From contig JBFWNL010000009.1 in NCBI GenBank assembly GCA_050251055.1, positions 32,001 to 96,000 on the forward strand: a DNA stretch of 64,000 bases. Direction: 5' to 3'. Of this stretch, positions 1 to 40,778 are shown one piece after another. Each line of letters opens with the position of its first letter. Position 1 is the stretch's first letter. A program made the translations under genes and the position numbers. The notes below the pieces were generated by a model. That model was given only the letters and a program-made list of their open reading frames with translations. It was not told where the DNA came from and did not search any database. The DNA is from Bacteriovoracia bacterium (GTDB taxonomy: Bacteria; Bdellovibrionota; UBA1018; JBFWNL01).

Positions 1-13
1 AGGGAGAATTAAT

Positions 14-334
14 TTGGGAAGAAATCAAAACCTAAAAACAGAAGGCAAAGGCTCAGAAATCAAAATCCAAAGCGAATCAAAACTCAAATTGATCAAGACC
101 GAAGTTCGTCAAAAACTGGATGCTGATCCCACATTGCTTCATAACGAATGGATGGACGCGTTCGAAGTAGCTACCTATATGGGAATTTCTTATGGCTCTG
201 TTCGAAATATGACCTACCGAAGAGAGATTCCCTTCTATCGACTTGGGCGAAGGCTCAGATTCAAAACAGAAGAGATTCGCCAGCACCTCAGCATGTCGAA
301 AGTGGGAATCAAGGAGTGGGGTCCATGCCGATAA
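14..334 (+). CDS. Excisionase-like helix-turn-helix DNA-binding protein (HTH_17 type)
   Basis: WMDAFEVATYMGISYGSVRNMTYRREIPFYRLGRRLRF matches the excisionase HTH pattern; overlaps the integrase start; start codon uncertain (TTG at 14). Confidence 0.8.
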   Translation: MGRNQNLKTEGKGSEIKIQSESKLKLIKTEVRQKLDADPTLLHNEWMDAFEVATYMGISYGSVRNMTYRREIPFYRLGRRLRFKTEEIRQHLSMSKVGIKEWGPCR

Positions 335-1428
335 AGCCAATTCGTAAAGATGGAATGGTTGCAGGCTACGAAGTAACCGTGTCCGAAAATATCGGTCGAA
401 AACGATTCCAAAAAAAGCGTCGATACAACTGCAGTCTCCCTGAGGCCAGAAAGCGGGAACTGGATTTGCTGGACGAGGTTAGACGGGACGCCAAAGAAGT
501 AGGCGTGCCGACTTTCTGGGATTGGATTGAACGATGGCTTGAGACTGCTGCGCTGACACGCAAGAAATCTACTGTTGACGCCTATCGGAGTACTCTGAAC
601 ACGCACGTTCCCCATGATCTGTGTCAGAAGCCAATTACGCGAATTTCGACGTCAGACATTCAGGGGATTGTTTTCAATCAAAAGGCAGAGATCACTCCCA
701 AAACCCGCGAGAACCTTTTGCAGTGCCTGAAGGTCATACTCAAGCACGCAATGTACGATCATCTCATTCCGTTCAATCCTGCAGATGGAGTAAAAATTTC
801 AGTCCCGGAAACAAAGCTCCAAGCGTGGACGATCAAGGAGATAAACCAGTTTCTTGAAGAAGCTTCTCGACGGCGGCATCCCTGGTATCCCATTTGGGTG
901 ACAGCAGTTCTTTCAGGGATGCGAAGTGGTGAGTTGTACGCTTTGGAATGGGTCAATGTTGATTTCGAGAATCGACGAATCTACGTAGTGGCCAATTGGA
1001 CGCTCAAAGATGGATTGCACGAGACTAAGAATCGTCGGAATCGCGTCGTTCCGATGAATAGCCAGCTATTCAAGTTTCTAGCTGAACTCAAACTAAAACG
1101 AGGTTCTGAGAAGAACGTCCTTCCGCATTTCGATGAGTGGACAAAGGGGATGCAGGCCGCAGTTTTGCGCCGATTCGCAAAACAAATCGGACTCAGGCAG
1201 ATCAATTTCCATGCACTCAGAGCGAGCTTCATCACGATTTGCATGCTTCAAAGCGTATCTACGGTAAAGGTCCAAGCTATTGTCGGCCACCAACGGCTAG
1301 ACACAACGATGCGCTACATCAGAATTATCGGTGCAGATTTGGATGACGCTACTGAGAACATCGGCATCAACATCCCTATACCAAGCCAAACTGGCAACGT
1401 GGTCCTCTTTGCTCCAAGGCAAGGTTAA
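325..1428 (+). CDS. Tyrosine recombinase/integrase
   Basis: Catalytic motifs SGMRSGEL (R), FHALRAS (HxxR), VGH and TMRY (Y); AAGGAG RBS at 311-316 supports the ATG at 325. Confidence 0.93.
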   Translation: MPIKPIRKDGMVAGYEVTVSENIGRKRFQKKRRYNCSLPEARKRELDLLDEVRRDAKEVGVPTFWDWIERWLETAALTRKKSTVDAYRSTLNTHVPHDLCQKPITRISTSDIQGIVFNQKAEITPKTRENLLQCLKVILKHAMYDHLIPFNPADGVKISVPETKLQAWTIKEINQFLEEASRRRHPWYPIWVTAVLSGMRSGELYALEWVNVDFENRRIYVVANWTLKDGLHETKNRRNRVVPMNSQLFKFLAELKLKRGSEKNVLPHFDEWTKGMQAAVLRRFAKQIGLRQINFHALRASFITICMLQSVSTVKVQAIVGHQRLDTTMRYIRIIGADLDDATENIGINIPIPSQTGNVVLFAPRQG

Positions 1429-1443
1429 TGACAATGGCAGGTA

Positions 1444-1472
1444 TTGACATGTACCCTATTTTGACGTACATT
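1444..1472 (+). promoter_or_regulatory. Sigma70 promoter of the TA operon with an overlapping palindromic operator
   Basis: TTGACA(1444-1449)-17 bp-TACATT(1467-1472); ATGTAC...GTACAT inverted repeat at 1449-1471. Confidence 0.65.
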
Positions 1473-1477
1473 GGGAG

Positions 1478-1789
1478 GTGACGATGCTTACTGACGTAAG
1501 ATCGTCTAAACGAGCACGAAAGAGCCTAAGCAAAGCGCCATTGCACGTTGTTCAGGCTTTCGGTGCTTGGTTAAGGACCGTAAGAGAGGTCGGCCTAGCA
1601 GAAGCTCAAAAAATTCCCGGCTATCACGATGAGCCATTGCAGGGAAAACTCAAGGGGTTGAGGTCATTCCGATTGTCTCTAGGCTACCGAGGATTTTATA
1701 GGATCGTAAAAGGAAGCGTTCAATTTGTACTAGTGGAGGAAGTGAATAAACATGACTACAAAAAGATCGAAAGGCTCTTCGGAGGATGA
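1478..1789 (+). CDS. higB: RelE/HigB-family mRNA interferase toxin
   Basis: YHDEPLQGKLKGLRSFRLSLGYRGFY is a RelE/HigB-type signature; lies upstream of an HTH antitoxin. Confidence 0.8.
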   Translation: MTMLTDVRSSKRARKSLSKAPLHVVQAFGAWLRTVREVGLAEAQKIPGYHDEPLQGKLKGLRSFRLSLGYRGFYRIVKGSVQFVLVEEVNKHDYKKIERLFGG

Positions 1790-2075
1790 GTTCATTGAAG
1801 GTCTGCTTGGCGGCCCGCTTACTTTTGGAATGGCCGTTGAAGCACTCCGCCTCCGTGATGAACTCTCGCAAGTTACCTTTGCAAAAAAGCTTGGAATATC
1901 TCGACAGTACCTTTGTGATGTTGAAAAAGGACGGAGACTCGTCAGCCCTGAGCAGGCCGCAAGGTTTGCAAAAGCATTTGGGCACCCACCAAGCGTCCTT
2001 GTTCAGTTAGCACTTCAAGACTCAGTAAGAGCGAGTGGACTAAAGCTCAAAGTAACTGTCGAGAATGCCGCCTAG
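1752..2075 (+). CDS. higA: XRE-family HTH antitoxin (HigA-like)
   Basis: LSQVTFAKKLGISRQYLCDVEKGRRLVS XRE HTH; toxin-first gene order. Confidence 0.8.
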   Translation: MTTKRSKGSSEDEFIEGLLGGPLTFGMAVEALRLRDELSQVTFAKKLGISRQYLCDVEKGRRLVSPEQAARFAKAFGHPPSVLVQLALQDSVRASGLKLKVTVENAA

Positions 2076-2083
2076 CGAAAGTA

Positions 2084-2293
2084 TTACTTCTGCCTTGTAA
2101 GCTCCTGTTGTCGCCTACGGAAGTCGAATAAGATCCCGACGACTTCCTCCAGAATCTGAGAGTATTCTTTGTCTGAGACACAATGGAAGAATGTTTTAAA
2201 TTCAGTTGGATTCCACTTTTTTGAGGGAGGTCTCTTCCTTGGTTTTCCATCTTTTCGGTAGCCAAAAGGTGCATCTTCATTAGCTTCGACCAT
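2084..2293 (-). CDS. Small hypothetical protein of the island
   Basis: 69-aa ORF overlapping the upstream gene end, GGAGG upstream. Confidence 0.45.
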   Translation of the reverse strand: MVEANEDAPFGYRKDGKPRKRPPSKKWNPTEFKTFFHCVSDKEYSQILEEVVGILFDFRRRQQELTRQK

Positions 2294-2786
2294 GTTTATC
2301 AGTAGCCTCCTTTGCTGTTTTTAACGGATATCTCGCGCCATGGCATGCATGATCTTTGGCCATTTCGAATGCTTGCGCCAATGTAATTCCACGATTGCGC
2401 AATTGATTGAGTATCGTCGTGGTTCCCCAGCTGAGCTCTCCAGAAGGTCGAACCGTCTTTTCGAGAAGCATCTTTGAGATGTGCCCATGCTTTCGATAGG
2501 CCTTCCGGAACTCATTGATGCAGAGATTCAGATCGAAGTTTTTGCCCAGCGCATTTTGCTTCGTCTTCTGCACTCTTTTGCCCATTTCGAGAGTCGCGTG
2601 CCTGCCGGCTTCAGAGCCTGACATAAGGGCTAAAATCCAACCTCGGATAAGCTCCTCTTCTTTGAAGCTAGTTGCATCGTCAACGCTTCCAAGTACTGCC
2701 AATTGCTCCTGGCGTTCTTCCTGCGCAACTTTGCGCATAAGGTAGTAGTAGGTTGTGTTCTTCCATTTCACTCGTTTTAGAAACAC
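2280..2786 (-). CDS. Hypothetical protein; N-terminus resembles the beta-strand DNA-binding N-terminus of IS1634-type proteins
   Basis: GAGGAGG RBS before GTG at 2786; MFLKRVKWKNTTYYYLMRK...QLAVLG. Confidence 0.55.
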   Translation of the reverse strand: MFLKRVKWKNTTYYYLMRKVAQEERQEQLAVLGSVDDATSFKEEELIRGWILALMSGSEAGRHATLEMGKRVQKTKQNALGKNFDLNLCINEFRKAYRKHGHISKMLLEKTVRPSGELSWGTTTILNQLRNRGITLAQAFEMAKDHACHGARYPLKTAKEATDKHGRS

Positions 2787-2912
2787 GGTAGTCCTCCTCG
2801 TAGGACAGCATCTTTTCACGCGTCCTAAGCAGAACCCTAATGATTGACGAGGTTTGGACAGGGACTTTGTACTGAGTTTCAAATGTCCCGTCCTAAACGT
2901 GTAGTTCGGAGT

Positions 2913-2931
2913 TGCAGCACAAATGCAGCAC
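2913..2931 (+). repeat. Tandem TGCAGCAC direct repeat, candidate integrase arm-type sites
   Basis: TGCAGCAC at 2913-2920 and 2924-2931 (11-bp period), ~135 bp inside the element from the tRNA 3' end. Confidence 0.5.
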
Positions 2932-3065
2932 GCGCGTGTGACAAGCCGTGATTTCGAATGACAACGAAAAGTCATGACGAAATCACTACCTGTGATTCTA
3001 AATACTTAGAGAAGCTCGGGTTTTTGGAAATCGACTAGAGATTCGATTTCCATTTGACTTTTAAT

Positions 3066-3141
3066 TGGCGTCCCCACACGGATTCGAACCGTGGTTACCG
3101 CCGTGAAAAGGCGGTGTCCTAGGCCTCTAGACGATGGGGAC
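3066..3141 (-). tRNA. tRNA-Glu (TTC)
   Basis: Reverse complement GTCCCCATCGTCTAGAGGCCTAGGACACCGCCTTTTCACGGCGGTAACCACGGTTCGAATCCGTGTGGGGACGCCA: 76-nt cloverleaf, TTC anticodon, GTTCGAATCC T-arm, CCA end. Confidence 0.97.
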
Positions 3142-3387
3142 GCACACCGGACCAATTGGATTGGTTTAGAGATTCCCAGCAATACCCGCAAGGTGGAGGG
3201 AATTCAAGGGGGAGCTGGGGGCGCGGGTGAAAAAACCCCGAGTCCATTGTTAGACTATTTATGTCGGATTAAACCCGTCCTTTACCCTTCGGCTGATTTT
3301 ACTGATCCCTGGCTTATTTCGAAGGAATGCAATGATCCCAAATTTTTCCGGGTCTTCCGGGATTTTTCTCGGGATAATCGATCCATC

Positions 3388-3756
3388 ATGAACCAGAAAG
3401 AATCCGCGACCCAGTTCCTCGAAAGGGTGGCCGCCGGCCAAGTGAGCGAAGCTTACGAACGTTTCATCTCTCCTGACTTCATCCACCATAACCCCTACTT
3501 CAAAGGAGATCGCGAGTCGCTGATGCTCGCGATGCAAACCGCCCATCGGATGAACCCGCAAAAGCAAATCCAGATCAAGCACGTTTACGAGGATGGAAAT
3601 ACGGTCATCACGCATTCGCACGTTCGCCAGCGTCCTGAAGACCCTGGCGCGGCGGTGGTCCATGTTTTCAAATTTCGCGACGCCAAGATCGCCGAACTCT
3701 GGGATGTGGGCCAGCCGCTCGCGGTCGACTCGCCCAACGCGAACGGACCGTTTTAG
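3388..3756 (+). CDS. SnoaL/NTF2-like family protein
   Basis: SPDFIHHNP...EDGNTVITHSHV...VVHVFKFRDAKIAELWD. Confidence 0.85.
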   Translation: MNQKESATQFLERVAAGQVSEAYERFISPDFIHHNPYFKGDRESLMLAMQTAHRMNPQKQIQIKHVYEDGNTVITHSHVRQRPEDPGAAVVHVFKFRDAKIAELWDVGQPLAVDSPNANGPF

Positions 3757-3863
3757 CGCGCCCGCTTCGCTGCCAGCCACGTGTAAAACTCGCGGCAAAA
3801 CTCAAGGTGGACATCCGGGATTTGTATCCCTATCCTAGGCCGTTCCAAACAAAAGGAGAGCCC

Positions 3864-4748
3864 ATGAAGCCCACCCCCCGCATGAGAACGTGTCTTTGGT
3901 TCAACGACCAGGCCGAAGAAGCCGCGAAATTTTACTGTTCCTTGTTTAAGAACTCCAAATTTGGCGAAGTGGTGCGCTACCCTGAAAAAGTAGCCCAGCA
4001 TGTGAAGGCAAAACCGGGTAGCGTGATGACGGTGACGTTTGAGCTGGAAGGTCACGCGATCCTGGGCCTCAACGGGGGCCCTCTCTTCCACCACACGCCT
4101 TCGCTTTCTTACTTCGTTTGGTGCGAAACAGAAGCGGAAATCAGCGAGCTGTGGAAAAAGCTACACGAAGGCGGTAAAGCGCGCATGGGTCTGGACAAGT
4201 ATCCCTGGGCCGAACGTTACGGCTGGACGACCGATCGTTTCGGGGTCGAATGGCAGCTCATGCTGAAGCAAAACCCCGTGAAGCTCGCGCCCGCGTTTCT
4301 TTTTGTCGACGAGCTTTTCGGCAAAGGCGAAGCGGCGATTTCCTTTTACCGCTCTATCTTCAAGGAATCAAAGCTCGACTTCATGGCAAAGGATGAAAAA
4401 ACGAATACCGTCATGCACGCCGTCTTCTCCCTCAATGGTCAGACCTTCGTGCTGATGGAAGGCCAGGGCCAGCACGGGTACACGTTCTCGACGGCATTTT
4501 CCATCGTTGCTCACTGCGACACCCAGGCTGAAATCGACCACTACTGGACGAAGCTGACCGCGGACGGCGGCCGCTCCAGCCAATGCGGGTGGCTGGAAGA
4601 CCGATACGGCGTCTCCTGGCAGATCGTGCCTTCGCAGCTCGACGAATGGATGCGCGAGCCAAAGAAGGCCGCGCAGGTCATGGACGTCGTCATGCAGATG
4701 CAGAAGCTCGACCTACAAAAGATGCAGCAAGCTTACGAGCAAGGCTAA
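3864..4748 (+). CDS. VOC family protein (PhnB/3-demethylubiquinone methyltransferase-like, duplicated domain)
   Basis: CLWFNDQAEEAAKFY, two DRFGVEWQ / DRYGVSWQ motifs; AAGGAG RBS. Confidence 0.9.
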   Translation: MKPTPRMRTCLWFNDQAEEAAKFYCSLFKNSKFGEVVRYPEKVAQHVKAKPGSVMTVTFELEGHAILGLNGGPLFHHTPSLSYFVWCETEAEISELWKKLHEGGKARMGLDKYPWAERYGWTTDRFGVEWQLMLKQNPVKLAPAFLFVDELFGKGEAAISFYRSIFKESKLDFMAKDEKTNTVMHAVFSLNGQTFVLMEGQGQHGYTFSTAFSIVAHCDTQAEIDHYWTKLTADGGRSSQCGWLEDRYGVSWQIVPSQLDEWMREPKKAAQVMDVVMQMQKLDLQKMQQAYEQG

Positions 4749-5824
4749 CCGCCGCGTTTGCTTTTCGACCGCTGCGCGGCTTCCTTGCTTCGTTTCTTCC
4801 AAAGCTTGCGCTGCTCGGATGCAAGGGCCTTGTCCTGCTTACGCATTTCGAAACGCACCTCGGCCGCGAGCTTCAGATAGCTCGCCCACCGATCTTCCCC
4901 AAGCTCCCCGTTCGCGCGCGCCGATTTCACCGCGCAGTCGGGTTCGGTGTCGTGCTGACAGTCGTTGAACCGGCACGACTGCGCCCACTCCTCAATGTCC
5001 GCAAACTGGGCGCTCACCCCTTCTTCGTGGTCGGCCAGCTGCAGTTCCCGCATCCCCGGCGTATCGATCACGAGCCCACCGAATCGACTGACATAGAGCG
5101 CGCGGGAAGTCGTGGTGTGCCGCCCACGCGCGTCGTCCTCGCGAATGGCCTGCGTCCGAATGCGATCGTCGTCGATAAGATAGTTCACGAGCGTGGATTT
5201 TCCCACTCCCGACGAACCCACGACCACGGCGGTCTTACCCACCTCGAGATAAGCCGCGAAGAATTCCGCCTGCGCGAAATTCGCTTGCGACAGAGCGTGC
5301 ACATCCACGCCGGGGAAGGTGCGTTGCGCGTCCCACACCGCCGCCTCCACGTCTCCCGTGTCCGCACAAAGGTCCGCTTTGGTAAGGAGGATCACGGGCG
5401 TGCAGCCCGACTCCCACGCCATCACGAGGTAACGCTCGAGCCGCCGATGATTCAGGTCTTCATTCAACGACGTGGTAATGAAGATCGTGTCGACGTTCGC
5501 CGCCAAAATCTGCATACCGCCCGCCGTACCCGCTTGCTTGCGTTGAATCACGGTCTTGCGAGGATAGACGCCATGAATTACCCCACGGTCGTGCGGATTG
5601 GGGGTATCCACCAACACCCAATCGCCCACCGCGGGATAACTTTCCCGCCCGTCGGCGTTGAATTGCATTTTTCCGCTCACACAAGCCCAACGCATGTCGG
5701 TCTCCGAGAATTGAACGCGATACAGTCCGCGCTCTTCGCAAATGACTCGGGCCGGCCTCCAAGCGGGCGAAAGCAGTCCGAGGTTTTGGCTTTCAAAGAA
5801 GCCATCCCAGCCTAAAAAGTGCAT
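4745..5824 (-). CDS. rsgA: Ribosome small subunit-dependent GTPase A
   Basis: Circularly permuted GTPase motifs TKADL, GSSGVGKST, GRHTTT, DTPGMR; Zn finger CRFNDCQHDTEPDC. Confidence 0.95.
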   Translation of the reverse strand: MHFLGWDGFFESQNLGLLSPAWRPARVICEERGLYRVQFSETDMRWACVSGKMQFNADGRESYPAVGDWVLVDTPNPHDRGVIHGVYPRKTVIQRKQAGTAGGMQILAANVDTIFITTSLNEDLNHRRLERYLVMAWESGCTPVILLTKADLCADTGDVEAAVWDAQRTFPGVDVHALSQANFAQAEFFAAYLEVGKTAVVVGSSGVGKSTLVNYLIDDDRIRTQAIREDDARGRHTTTSRALYVSRFGGLVIDTPGMRELQLADHEEGVSAQFADIEEWAQSCRFNDCQHDTEPDCAVKSARANGELGEDRWASYLKLAAEVRFEMRKQDKALASEQRKLWKKRSKEAAQRSKSKRGG

Positions 5825-5826
5825 GA

Positions 5827-5960
5827 GATCTCCCTAATTGAGTTTTACAGATTCAGGTTCGTAGGATTGAACTCAAGGAGATCGGTCGCGGTCGAAGTTG
5901 CGAGTTATTGCGAACGGAGGCCTTGAGTGGTGTGAGTGACAAACATCTTGTGGCCTCCTT
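5827..5960 (-). promoter_or_regulatory. Translational attenuator (alternative hairpins) of rsgA
   Basis: Hairpin 5827-5883 hides the rsgA GGGAG SD; leader segment 5921-5928 is complementary to its 5' arm (5871-5878). Confidence 0.65.
5905..5946 (-). CDS. Putative leader peptide MFVTHTTQGLRSQ upstream of rsgA
   Basis: Perfect AAGGAGG SD (5954-5960) 7 nt before the ATG at 5946; TAA at 5905-5907. Confidence 0.7.
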   Translation of the reverse strand: MFVTHTTQGLRSQ

Positions 5961-6127
5961 CTGGTTTGAAACGCTCCGCATAATTGCGGGTATGGAGATA
6001 GATTAGATGACGCGCGCGCTTTCGTCAATGGGCTCGAAATGGCTTAGAAATCGGAGGCATTTCGAGCCCAGACCCGAACGCTGCCCTTACACTGGGAAAA
6101 ATCCCGAATCATTTTCGCTACCGTGAC

Positions 6128-40602: not shown

Positions 40603-40778
40603 AACGAATCGAAAGACTTAGCATTCATGGGGGGGTAGAGCAATGGCGTTAATCGTATTGAGAGCCTATTGTAAGCGATTGATATTATTAAATTTATATT
40701 AGCAGATTGGATCCAGTAAAGATTGACTAATTAAGTATGTTTTTATATACCCGCCCCGAGCCAAAAGGAACGTCCCGC

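Follow-up and report, generated by a model that had tools for sequence, protein, structure and literature searches.

In annotations, RsgA is invariably described as an ordinary 30S assembly factor, and the locus described here raises the question of why the gene for such a GTPase lies behind a short leader ORF (uORF) and a set of complementary RNA segments that involve its own Shine-Dalgarno (SD) sequence. The gene was found in a window of 64,000 nucleotides from a Bacteriovoracia bacterium, the whole stretch of DNA that was analysed. A sequence-only reading had proposed that a leader peptide and three mutually exclusive helices control rsgA translation by the logic of erm/cat-type attenuation, and that a ribosome stalled at the first leader codons switches on a paralogue inducible by antibiotics or ribosome stress, analogous to hflXr. 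We consider it very likely that the switch is driven by a ribosome, and probable that the leader as a whole works as a ribosome-mediated translational attenuator of an accessory RsgA, for which arrest at the start of the uORF is the likeliest trigger.

Leader layout and the predicted ribosome switch

All elements of the leader lie on the minus strand, upstream of the rsgA ATG at 5824. The uORF SD, AAGGAGG (5960-5954), precedes a predicted 13-codon leader ORF (MFVTHTTQGLRSQ and a stop codon; 5946-5905), and a spacer of 80 nt follows before the rsgA ATG; the three are located exactly where the sequence-only reading had placed them, and so are the pairings of its three helices. The uORF SD and ATG together score -11.7 kcal/mol, the strongest value for any GGAGG-bearing site on either strand of the window, versus a median SD of -3.1 kcal/mol for the 51 listed gene starts in the window; an SD as strong appeared in none of 5000 dinucleotide shuffles. 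Helix 1 (H1) pairs GGAGGCC (5958-5952) with GGCCTCC (5922-5916). Helix 2 (H2) pairs the anti-SD strand, GATCTCCTTGAGTT (5883-5870), with AACTCAA (5844-5838) and GGAGATC (5833-5827), and its 3' arm (5844-5827) contains the rsgA SD, AGGGAG (5835-5830). Besides this form of 7+7 bp, which had been described, an 11-bp form (5883-5873/5837-5827) has about equal weight, and the SD is buried in both. Helix 3 (H3) pairs ACTCAAGG (5928-5921) with CCTTGAGT (5878-5871), the latter being part of the anti-SD strand. The switch element within the uORF (5928-5916) serves as the 5' arm of H3 (5928-5921, an anti-anti-SD) and as the 3' arm of H1 (5922-5916), and GG 5922-5921 is common to the two arms.

Further upstream, MFE folds contain a 5'-end hairpin of 5 bp with a 4-nt loop (5989-5976), and a putative sigma70-type promoter, TTGACG-17 nt-TAATCT, is located at 6028-6000; it is the top intergenic site by our own rough weights, and a stricter consensus scan found no site there. 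We infer that transcription starts near 5993, 5' of the uORF. Terminator scans detected no intrinsic terminator on the minus strand of the leader; terminator-based control at this locus was thus rejected, and with it a transcription attenuator of the hflXr/vmlR type. Rfam covariance models gave no match over this leader or over 12 homologous leaders. Two minor features were also seen on the minus strand. A second ATG, located in the 5' hairpin and lacking an SD, starts an ORF of 42 codons in a different frame (5981-5853), which crosses the anti-SD strand and would melt helix 2 if translated. Codons 22-24 of rsgA (about 5760-5750) repeat GGAGGCC and could pair with the GGCCUCC of the uORF once H1 is open, although this may be chance.

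In folding models of the ribosome-free transcript, H1 and H2 both have P=1.00 and form the OFF state, in which the rsgA SD is fully open with a probability of 1e-8 to 3e-5. The claim of three mutually exclusive helices thus stands for H3, which excludes the other two, but not for H1 and H2, which coexist. Masking codons 1-2(3) raises the open-SD probability from 1e-8 to 2-3e-4 with a transcript end at 5812 and from 1e-5 to 3-4e-3 with an end at 5780, codon 3 counting as switching only with a shorter ribosome footprint. With a footprint on codons 1-2, H1 is lost and the chance of an open SD rises 14-fold to more than 10,000-fold across the folding models; footprints on codons 4-14 raise it at most 100-fold, with an H3 probability of 0.00. 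Expressed by P-site codon, the cost of opening the rsgA SD is 5, 5, 9, 11, 11 kcal/mol and upward, versus 11 kcal/mol without a ribosome. A ribosome on the first leader codons is therefore predicted to open the rsgA SD, as had been supposed, with the effect confined to codons 1-2(3).

The predicted ON state is less firmly set than the OFF state. With a ribosome on the first codons, H3 reaches a P of only 0.08-0.77, which varies with the 3' end chosen, and so with the length of coding sequence in the fold. In folds of the growing transcript with a stalled ribosome, H3 is the MFE structure from 5870 to 5826; in longer transcripts the MFE structure returns to H2, which partly wins back at equilibrium. 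Since H3 is finished before the 3' arm of H2 has been transcribed, kinetics would favour the ON state while a ribosome is parked; by the same token, the ON state leans partly on kinetics, which is a weakness of the model. In addition, H1 hides the uORF SD (probability open 2e-10 in the folding model), thus requiring a kinetic window or a helper for ribosome loading.

We propose the following course of events. On a transcript begun 5' of the uORF, H2 would bury the rsgA SD whenever the leader carries no ribosome, or one that is traversing or finishing the uORF, and the switch element would be held off the anti-SD strand by H1 or by the ribosome itself. A ribosome would load on the strong uORF SD, probably co-transcriptionally and ahead of H1 formation. 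Its arrest at codons 1-2(3) is predicted to mask the 5' arm of H1 and to leave 5928-5921 free, and H3 would form prior to transcription of the H2 3' arm, making the rsgA SD accessible. Judging from this geometry and from the literature, the likeliest trigger would be arrest at or just after initiation, as by lincosamides, pleuromutilins and tetracycline. The induced GTPase, in view of the known activities of RsgA, would probably assist the maturation or recycling of 30S subunits or of stalled ribosomes in translation stress.

Leaders of homologous rsgA genes

A scan of a genome collection gave at least 80 homologous loci at 40-48% identity, with one Bdellovibrio among the matches listed. A start call was lacking in two of 80 (L020, L069), and fewer than 100 nt were available upstream in 14 of the other 78, so that 64 loci were kept; a uORF was absent by one rule in 17 of these, and leaving out L001, L009 and L070 from the remaining 47 gave 44 leaders. 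The loci are not independent, L022 and L038 being near copies. Among the matches listed, a uORF with an SD of -8 or lower precedes 34 of the 64 rsgA genes and 17 of the 335 genes nearby that served as controls (p = 3e-19), and by a second rule the counts are 46 of 64 versus 29 of 335. The control genes, which were predicted by simple ORF calling, are preceded by less upstream sequence (a median of 278 against 350 nt) and include two rsgA genes (L064, L069), whose presence biases against the enrichment.

In 23 of the 44 leaders, the native uORF beats at least 19 of 20 shuffles at opening the rsgA SD, and the same holds for 3 of 28 control uORFs. When a ddG of at least 2.5 kcal/mol is required in addition, the SD switch is present in 20 of 44 leaders versus one of 28 controls, among the matches listed, and these 20 loci belong to Bacillota, Cyanobacteriota, Acidobacteriota, Pseudomonadota and Bdellovibrionota. 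In roughly half of the homologues tested, an SD switch is missing (rank above 1 in 21/44, rank of at least 16 in 6/44). The sole Bdellovibrio among the matches listed (L034; 43% identity) repeats the arrangement of three helices with a different sequence, and its uORF starts with MIVT, that of the window with MFVT.

Two leader designs can be distinguished. In one, the uORF hides its own SD in a significant H1-type duplex (13 of 44, among the matches listed); the present leader follows this design, as do those of Bdellovibrio HCB337 and several Bacillales. The second design has its switch strand in the later part of the uORF; the RNA is open when free, and folding predicts that a ribosome passing about codons 10-16 closes it, so that a stall anywhere earlier would turn the gene on. 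Most switch-positive homologues have an open fold when no ribosome is present, which a ribosome moving along the uORF shuts. Terminators occur in 8 of 46 leaders, all from Bacillales (among the matches listed), and equilibrium antitermination is clear in only two of these eight by a test that is mostly uninformative. By our own weights, the best promoter-like site lies 5' of the uORF in 36 of 44 leaders among the matches listed, inside it in 3, and is tied in 5. In a Listeria clade member located next to pnp (L081), the uORF (2396-2452) has 18 codons and a weak SD (-5.4), and folding predicts a switch around codons 10-11.

Pair counts were limited to the nine cyanobacterial leaders, as the Bacillota alignments are too poor and leaders cannot be aligned between phyla. 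In this set the H3 positions are 87.8% paired (14 of 500 shuffles as high), with double changes within the range of the shuffles (119/500), and H2 is not above the shuffles (192/500); helix pairing is kept at 88% and 91%, and covariation is weak. No residue dominates in the uORF peptides (n=49; Val 9.6%, Ala 9.3%, Thr 8.9%), and the macrolide motif R/K-x-R/K is absent from the window uORF and found in five of the 49 peptides overall. As far as sequence comparison can tell, it is the RNA logic that is conserved across the homologues, and not the peptides; a conserved functional leader peptide was rejected because the 49 homologous peptides are not conserved. TQG is present in the leader peptides of four cyanobacterial loci (L013, L048, L050, L052), as in the window peptide, probably owing to the CAAGG needed for anti-SD pairing rather than to the peptide.

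No leader of such kind was seen in the Rhizobium and Vibrio members of the clade, and the uORF of the Streptomyces rimosus member showed no switch in folding. Among ten upstream regions of housekeeping-type rsgA genes, none has a free-standing leader like the one described here, and candidates appear in three of ten when 300 nt are scanned irrespective of upstream genes.

The accessory RsgA clade

The rsgA gene (4745-5824, minus strand) encodes 359 aa and matches TIGR00157 (164 bits, cutoff 100) and PF03193. The alignment shows intact G4/G1/G2/G3 motifs in circularly permuted order, a zinc finger and an N-terminal beta domain; the structural model (pLDDT 78.7) has an extra N-terminal helix and a basic C-terminal helix at residues 332-356, and its top Foldseek matches are all RsgA. 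The protein falls below the cutoffs of PRK12288 and PRK12289, and its closest relatives in the protein search are 55-66% identical and are Bdellovibrionota where named, Bdellovibrio sp. KM01, HCB185ZH and qaytius among them. In a tree of 113 rows, which was built by a quick method with a midpoint root from two sets of different queries and is without Bdellovibrio, cyanobacterial or actinobacterial housekeeping copies, the protein lies within a 101-row clade of many phyla, split from the other 12 rows with an SH-aLRT of 100. Housekeeping-type is the label of 11 of those 12 rows, six of which have an annotated orn-rsgA-psd or pknB-rsgA context. Judged by its sequence, the RsgA here is a member of an accessory clade separate from housekeeping YjeQ/CpgA. 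The word paralogue, which the sequence-only reading had used, fits in part, in that the clade is separate and both types coexist in at least two other genomes, one Listeria and one Bacillus chromosome record having a copy of each type; the 64-kb window itself holds one rsgA copy.

Members of the clade retain all GTPase motifs and the zinc finger and have an additional N-terminal helix and a basic C-terminal one; the stretch that follows the zinc finger has a median length of 61 residues, against 32-48 in the housekeeping proteins. Their genes are usually stand-alone with variable neighbours, unlike the conserved orn-rsgA-psd or pknB-rsgA-rpe arrangements, and no recurring or resistance-gene neighbour was found among 76 downstream genes of the matches listed. 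The clade is patchy in distribution, and 93 plasmid-collection records match at E <= 1e-40.

Several individual neighbourhoods may be mentioned. In the window, rsgA converges with a glyoxalase-like (VOC) gene (3864-4748), with a 4-nt overlap at 4745-4748. In Leptolyngbya JSC-1 (L076, 7128-8336), the next gene after rsgA, with the same orientation, encodes an RtcB RNA ligase, a possible ribosome-repair pairing found in one of 76 cases. In Bdellovibrio sp. HCB337 (L034, 7329-11024), a fused two-module ABC transporter gene comes directly after rsgA; it has a 24-codon uORF with a strong SD (-12.0), and a predicted SD switch is absent. L085 (CP031730.1) bears the label of a Stenotrophomonas plasmid; at 2486-4001 it has an rsgA with a predicted fosB gene 3' of it, and the encoded RsgA groups with Bacillales (Metasolibacillus), making the origin or label of the record doubtful.

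An RsgA that responds to translation inhibitors has been recorded in Streptomyces coelicolor. The rsgA gene SCO6149 is raised 68.4-fold in tetracycline in a WblC-dependent manner (PMC7157823, Table S2). In a second data set, the WblC-flagged RsgA Q9ZBT9 has log2 values of 4.3 with lincomycin and 4.7 with tiamulin, that is, a rise of about 20-fold with both, and of -0.27 with erythromycin; no such rise is seen for the other RsgA, Q9K4A8 (PMC12421871, Data S2). Q9ZBT9 presumably corresponds to SCO6149, which would belong to the accessory clade, although the protein search that started from the S. rimosus member did not extend as far as S. coelicolor. The likeness to the case proposed here is that a second RsgA is induced by translation inhibitors and the other copy is not; the difference is that induction runs through the transcription factor WblC, the cited parts of the two studies reporting no leader mechanism or function (PMC7157823, PMC12421871). 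Being driven by a transcription factor, the induction in S. coelicolor backs the purpose of the switch, not the leader.

Known attenuators, rival explanations and the inducing signal

In ermC and cat, a leader ORF is combined with an SD-sequestering hairpin that is rearranged by a stalled ribosome, and the stall occurs several codons into the leader with a specific nascent peptide. The comparison with erm/cat made by the sequence-only reading holds for the SD-sequestering and stall logic but not for the stall itself, as the stalling-peptide motif is absent and arrest is predicted to act at codons 1-2(3); an ermC/cat-like stall several codons in would leave the rsgA switch OFF. With the motif lacking and the SD kept closed by a stall past codon 3, the leader does not qualify as a peptide sensor of the erm/cat or hflXr type, and stalling at the start codon, as in vmlR, cplR and toiL, fits better. 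In Bacillus subtilis vmlR and Clostridioides difficile cplR, the uORF lies in the first hairpin, which acts as an anti-antiterminator, a start-stalled ribosome releases a strand by which the repressing hairpin is undone, and the main gene is under an SD-sequestering hairpin (PMC9226507, PMC10201436). Their products are 50S-acting ARE-ABCF ATPases, and their leaders have 3-codon uORFs and an intrinsic terminator (PMC9226507, PMC10201436), whereas the rsgA leader has a 13-codon uORF, no terminator that we could find and a 30S GTPase as its target. In Escherichia coli toiL-topAI, occlusion of the ribosome binding site is purely translational and is relieved by a start-codon stall in tetracycline or retapamulin; the target there is a toxin-antitoxin system and stalls at several codons induce (PMC12121999), whereas only codons 1-2(3) are predicted to induce rsgA. 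Listeria rli80-hflXr is similar in that a ribosome GTPase is present twice, the second copy accompanying a housekeeping one, and in its short uORF and alternative structures; it differs by transcription attenuation, an RLR macrolide motif, the 50S-binding HflX and proven resistance (PMC6310831).

Taken together, the class of attenuator is a known one (vmlR, cplR, toiL, erm), and its placement on rsgA may be new. The supplement of the HflXr study has no match for rsgA, engC or lmo1332, the last of which we take, from its neighbouring pnp gene, to be the Listeria rsgA locus tag. Our literature search, the scope of which ended short of subscription papers and of the Dar et al. 2016 Term-seq tables and the PASIFIC supplement (PMC5314783), two places where such a leader could be listed, found no report of an rsgA leader.

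Chance complementarity, or a static hairpin that merely lowers expression, would be the simplest explanation, and SD-like purine runs do inevitably pair with anti-SD sequences. Indeed, an SD helix of at least 7 bp arises in 234 of 5000 shuffles, and H2 by itself is thus only mildly unusual. The remaining tests speak differently: the rsgA SD is closed as tightly in 3 of 300 shuffles, the leader MFE has z = -2.36 and -2.80 in two computations, the H1 and H3 duplexes are each stronger than in 100 of 100 shuffles, and none of 300 shuffles has a stall-dependent opening as large. Together with the enrichment over control genes and the repetition of the layout in five phyla, these computations have largely refuted chance or a static hairpin, which we regard as very unlikely. 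We give a similarly low standing to the possibility that the structure is opened by an RNA or protein acting in trans, with only an incidental uORF. The hidden uORF SD, with its need for a kinetic window or helper, would suit such a factor, but a significant H1-type duplex is found in only 13 of the 44 homologues among the matches listed, and the closure by a moving ribosome in most switch-positive homologues needs translation. An attenuator of the biosynthetic-operon type, sensing starvation for Thr or His, is suggested by the three Thr and one His in uORF codons 4-7; it is extremely improbable, because a ribosome that has reached codon 4 or gone beyond it sits on the H3 arm, leaving the SD closed, and because the 49 homologous peptides have no dominant residue. 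On these two grounds the amino-acid attenuator was rejected.

The same RNA switch might alternatively answer an internal signal, namely slow conversion from initiation to elongation through immature 30S subunits, a shortage of 50S subunits, cold or recovery from starvation, and would then form a feedback loop that supplies more 30S-maturation factor when needed. RsgA is a late 30S maturation factor that monitors the decoding centre of the 30S subunit and can split 70S ribosomes (PMC6912228), and these activities would permit a drug rescue role or a ribosome-quality feedback alike. The opening of the SD solely by a ribosome parked on codons 1-2, and the absence of both a peptide motif and a resistance-gene context, fit this reading. 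Against it stand the accessory and patchy nature of the clade, which is often on plasmids, the lack of a free-standing leader in the ten housekeeping-type upstream regions, and the S. coelicolor paralogue, which answers lincomycin and tiamulin but not erythromycin. We consider an internal signal in place of antibiotics improbable; the internal and antibiotic readings can be compatible with each other.

Returning to the attenuator triggered by start arrest, lincosamides, pleuromutilins and streptogramin A stall ribosomes at uORF start codons (PMC12421871, PMC9226507), and tetracycline and retapamulin stall them at start codons as well (PMC12121999). We lean towards translation-inhibiting antibiotics being a main natural inducer. 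Whether this rsgA copy gives measurable resistance is a different matter, which we think doubtful; the literature search found no antibiotic-susceptibility data on a resistance role of such an RsgA. Leaders that sense ribosome stalling mark intrinsic resistance or rescue factors, hflXr, vmlR and cplR among them, and the recurrence of the same logic in unrelated sequences of five phyla hints at an unstudied stress role of the accessory RsgA, which may be an overlooked ribosome-stress or drug-tolerance factor. The accessory clade may also explain why some genomes have two rsgA genes. As a tentative extension, which we hold to be rather unlikely in full, the clade would be a widespread, unrecognised inducible factor for ribosome rescue or protection acting from the 30S subunit, a counterpart of HflXr and the ARE-ABCFs, whose basic C-terminal helix recycles drug-arrested initiation complexes and for which lineages keep or re-invent leaders that respond to first-codon arrest. 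The model predicts induction by start-arresting drugs and not by macrolides, and the leader could act as a reporter of initiation-stage arrest.

Two other regions of the window were noted. On the plus strand, a 19-codon Leu/Ile-rich ORF (MALIVLRAYCKRLILLNLY; 40644-40703) follows a G-run that scores as a strong SD and precedes an unknown 465-aa ORF in an AT-rich patch; it may be an artefact of the G-run. Window positions 1-3141 have a GC content of about 47%, lower than the rest, and end at a tRNA-Glu (3066-3141); they contain an excisionase-like HTH ORF (14-334), a tyrosine integrase (ORF 148-1428) and a possible toxin-antitoxin pair (1484-1789, no Pfam match; 1752-2075, HTH), and this segment is probably the end of an integrated element.
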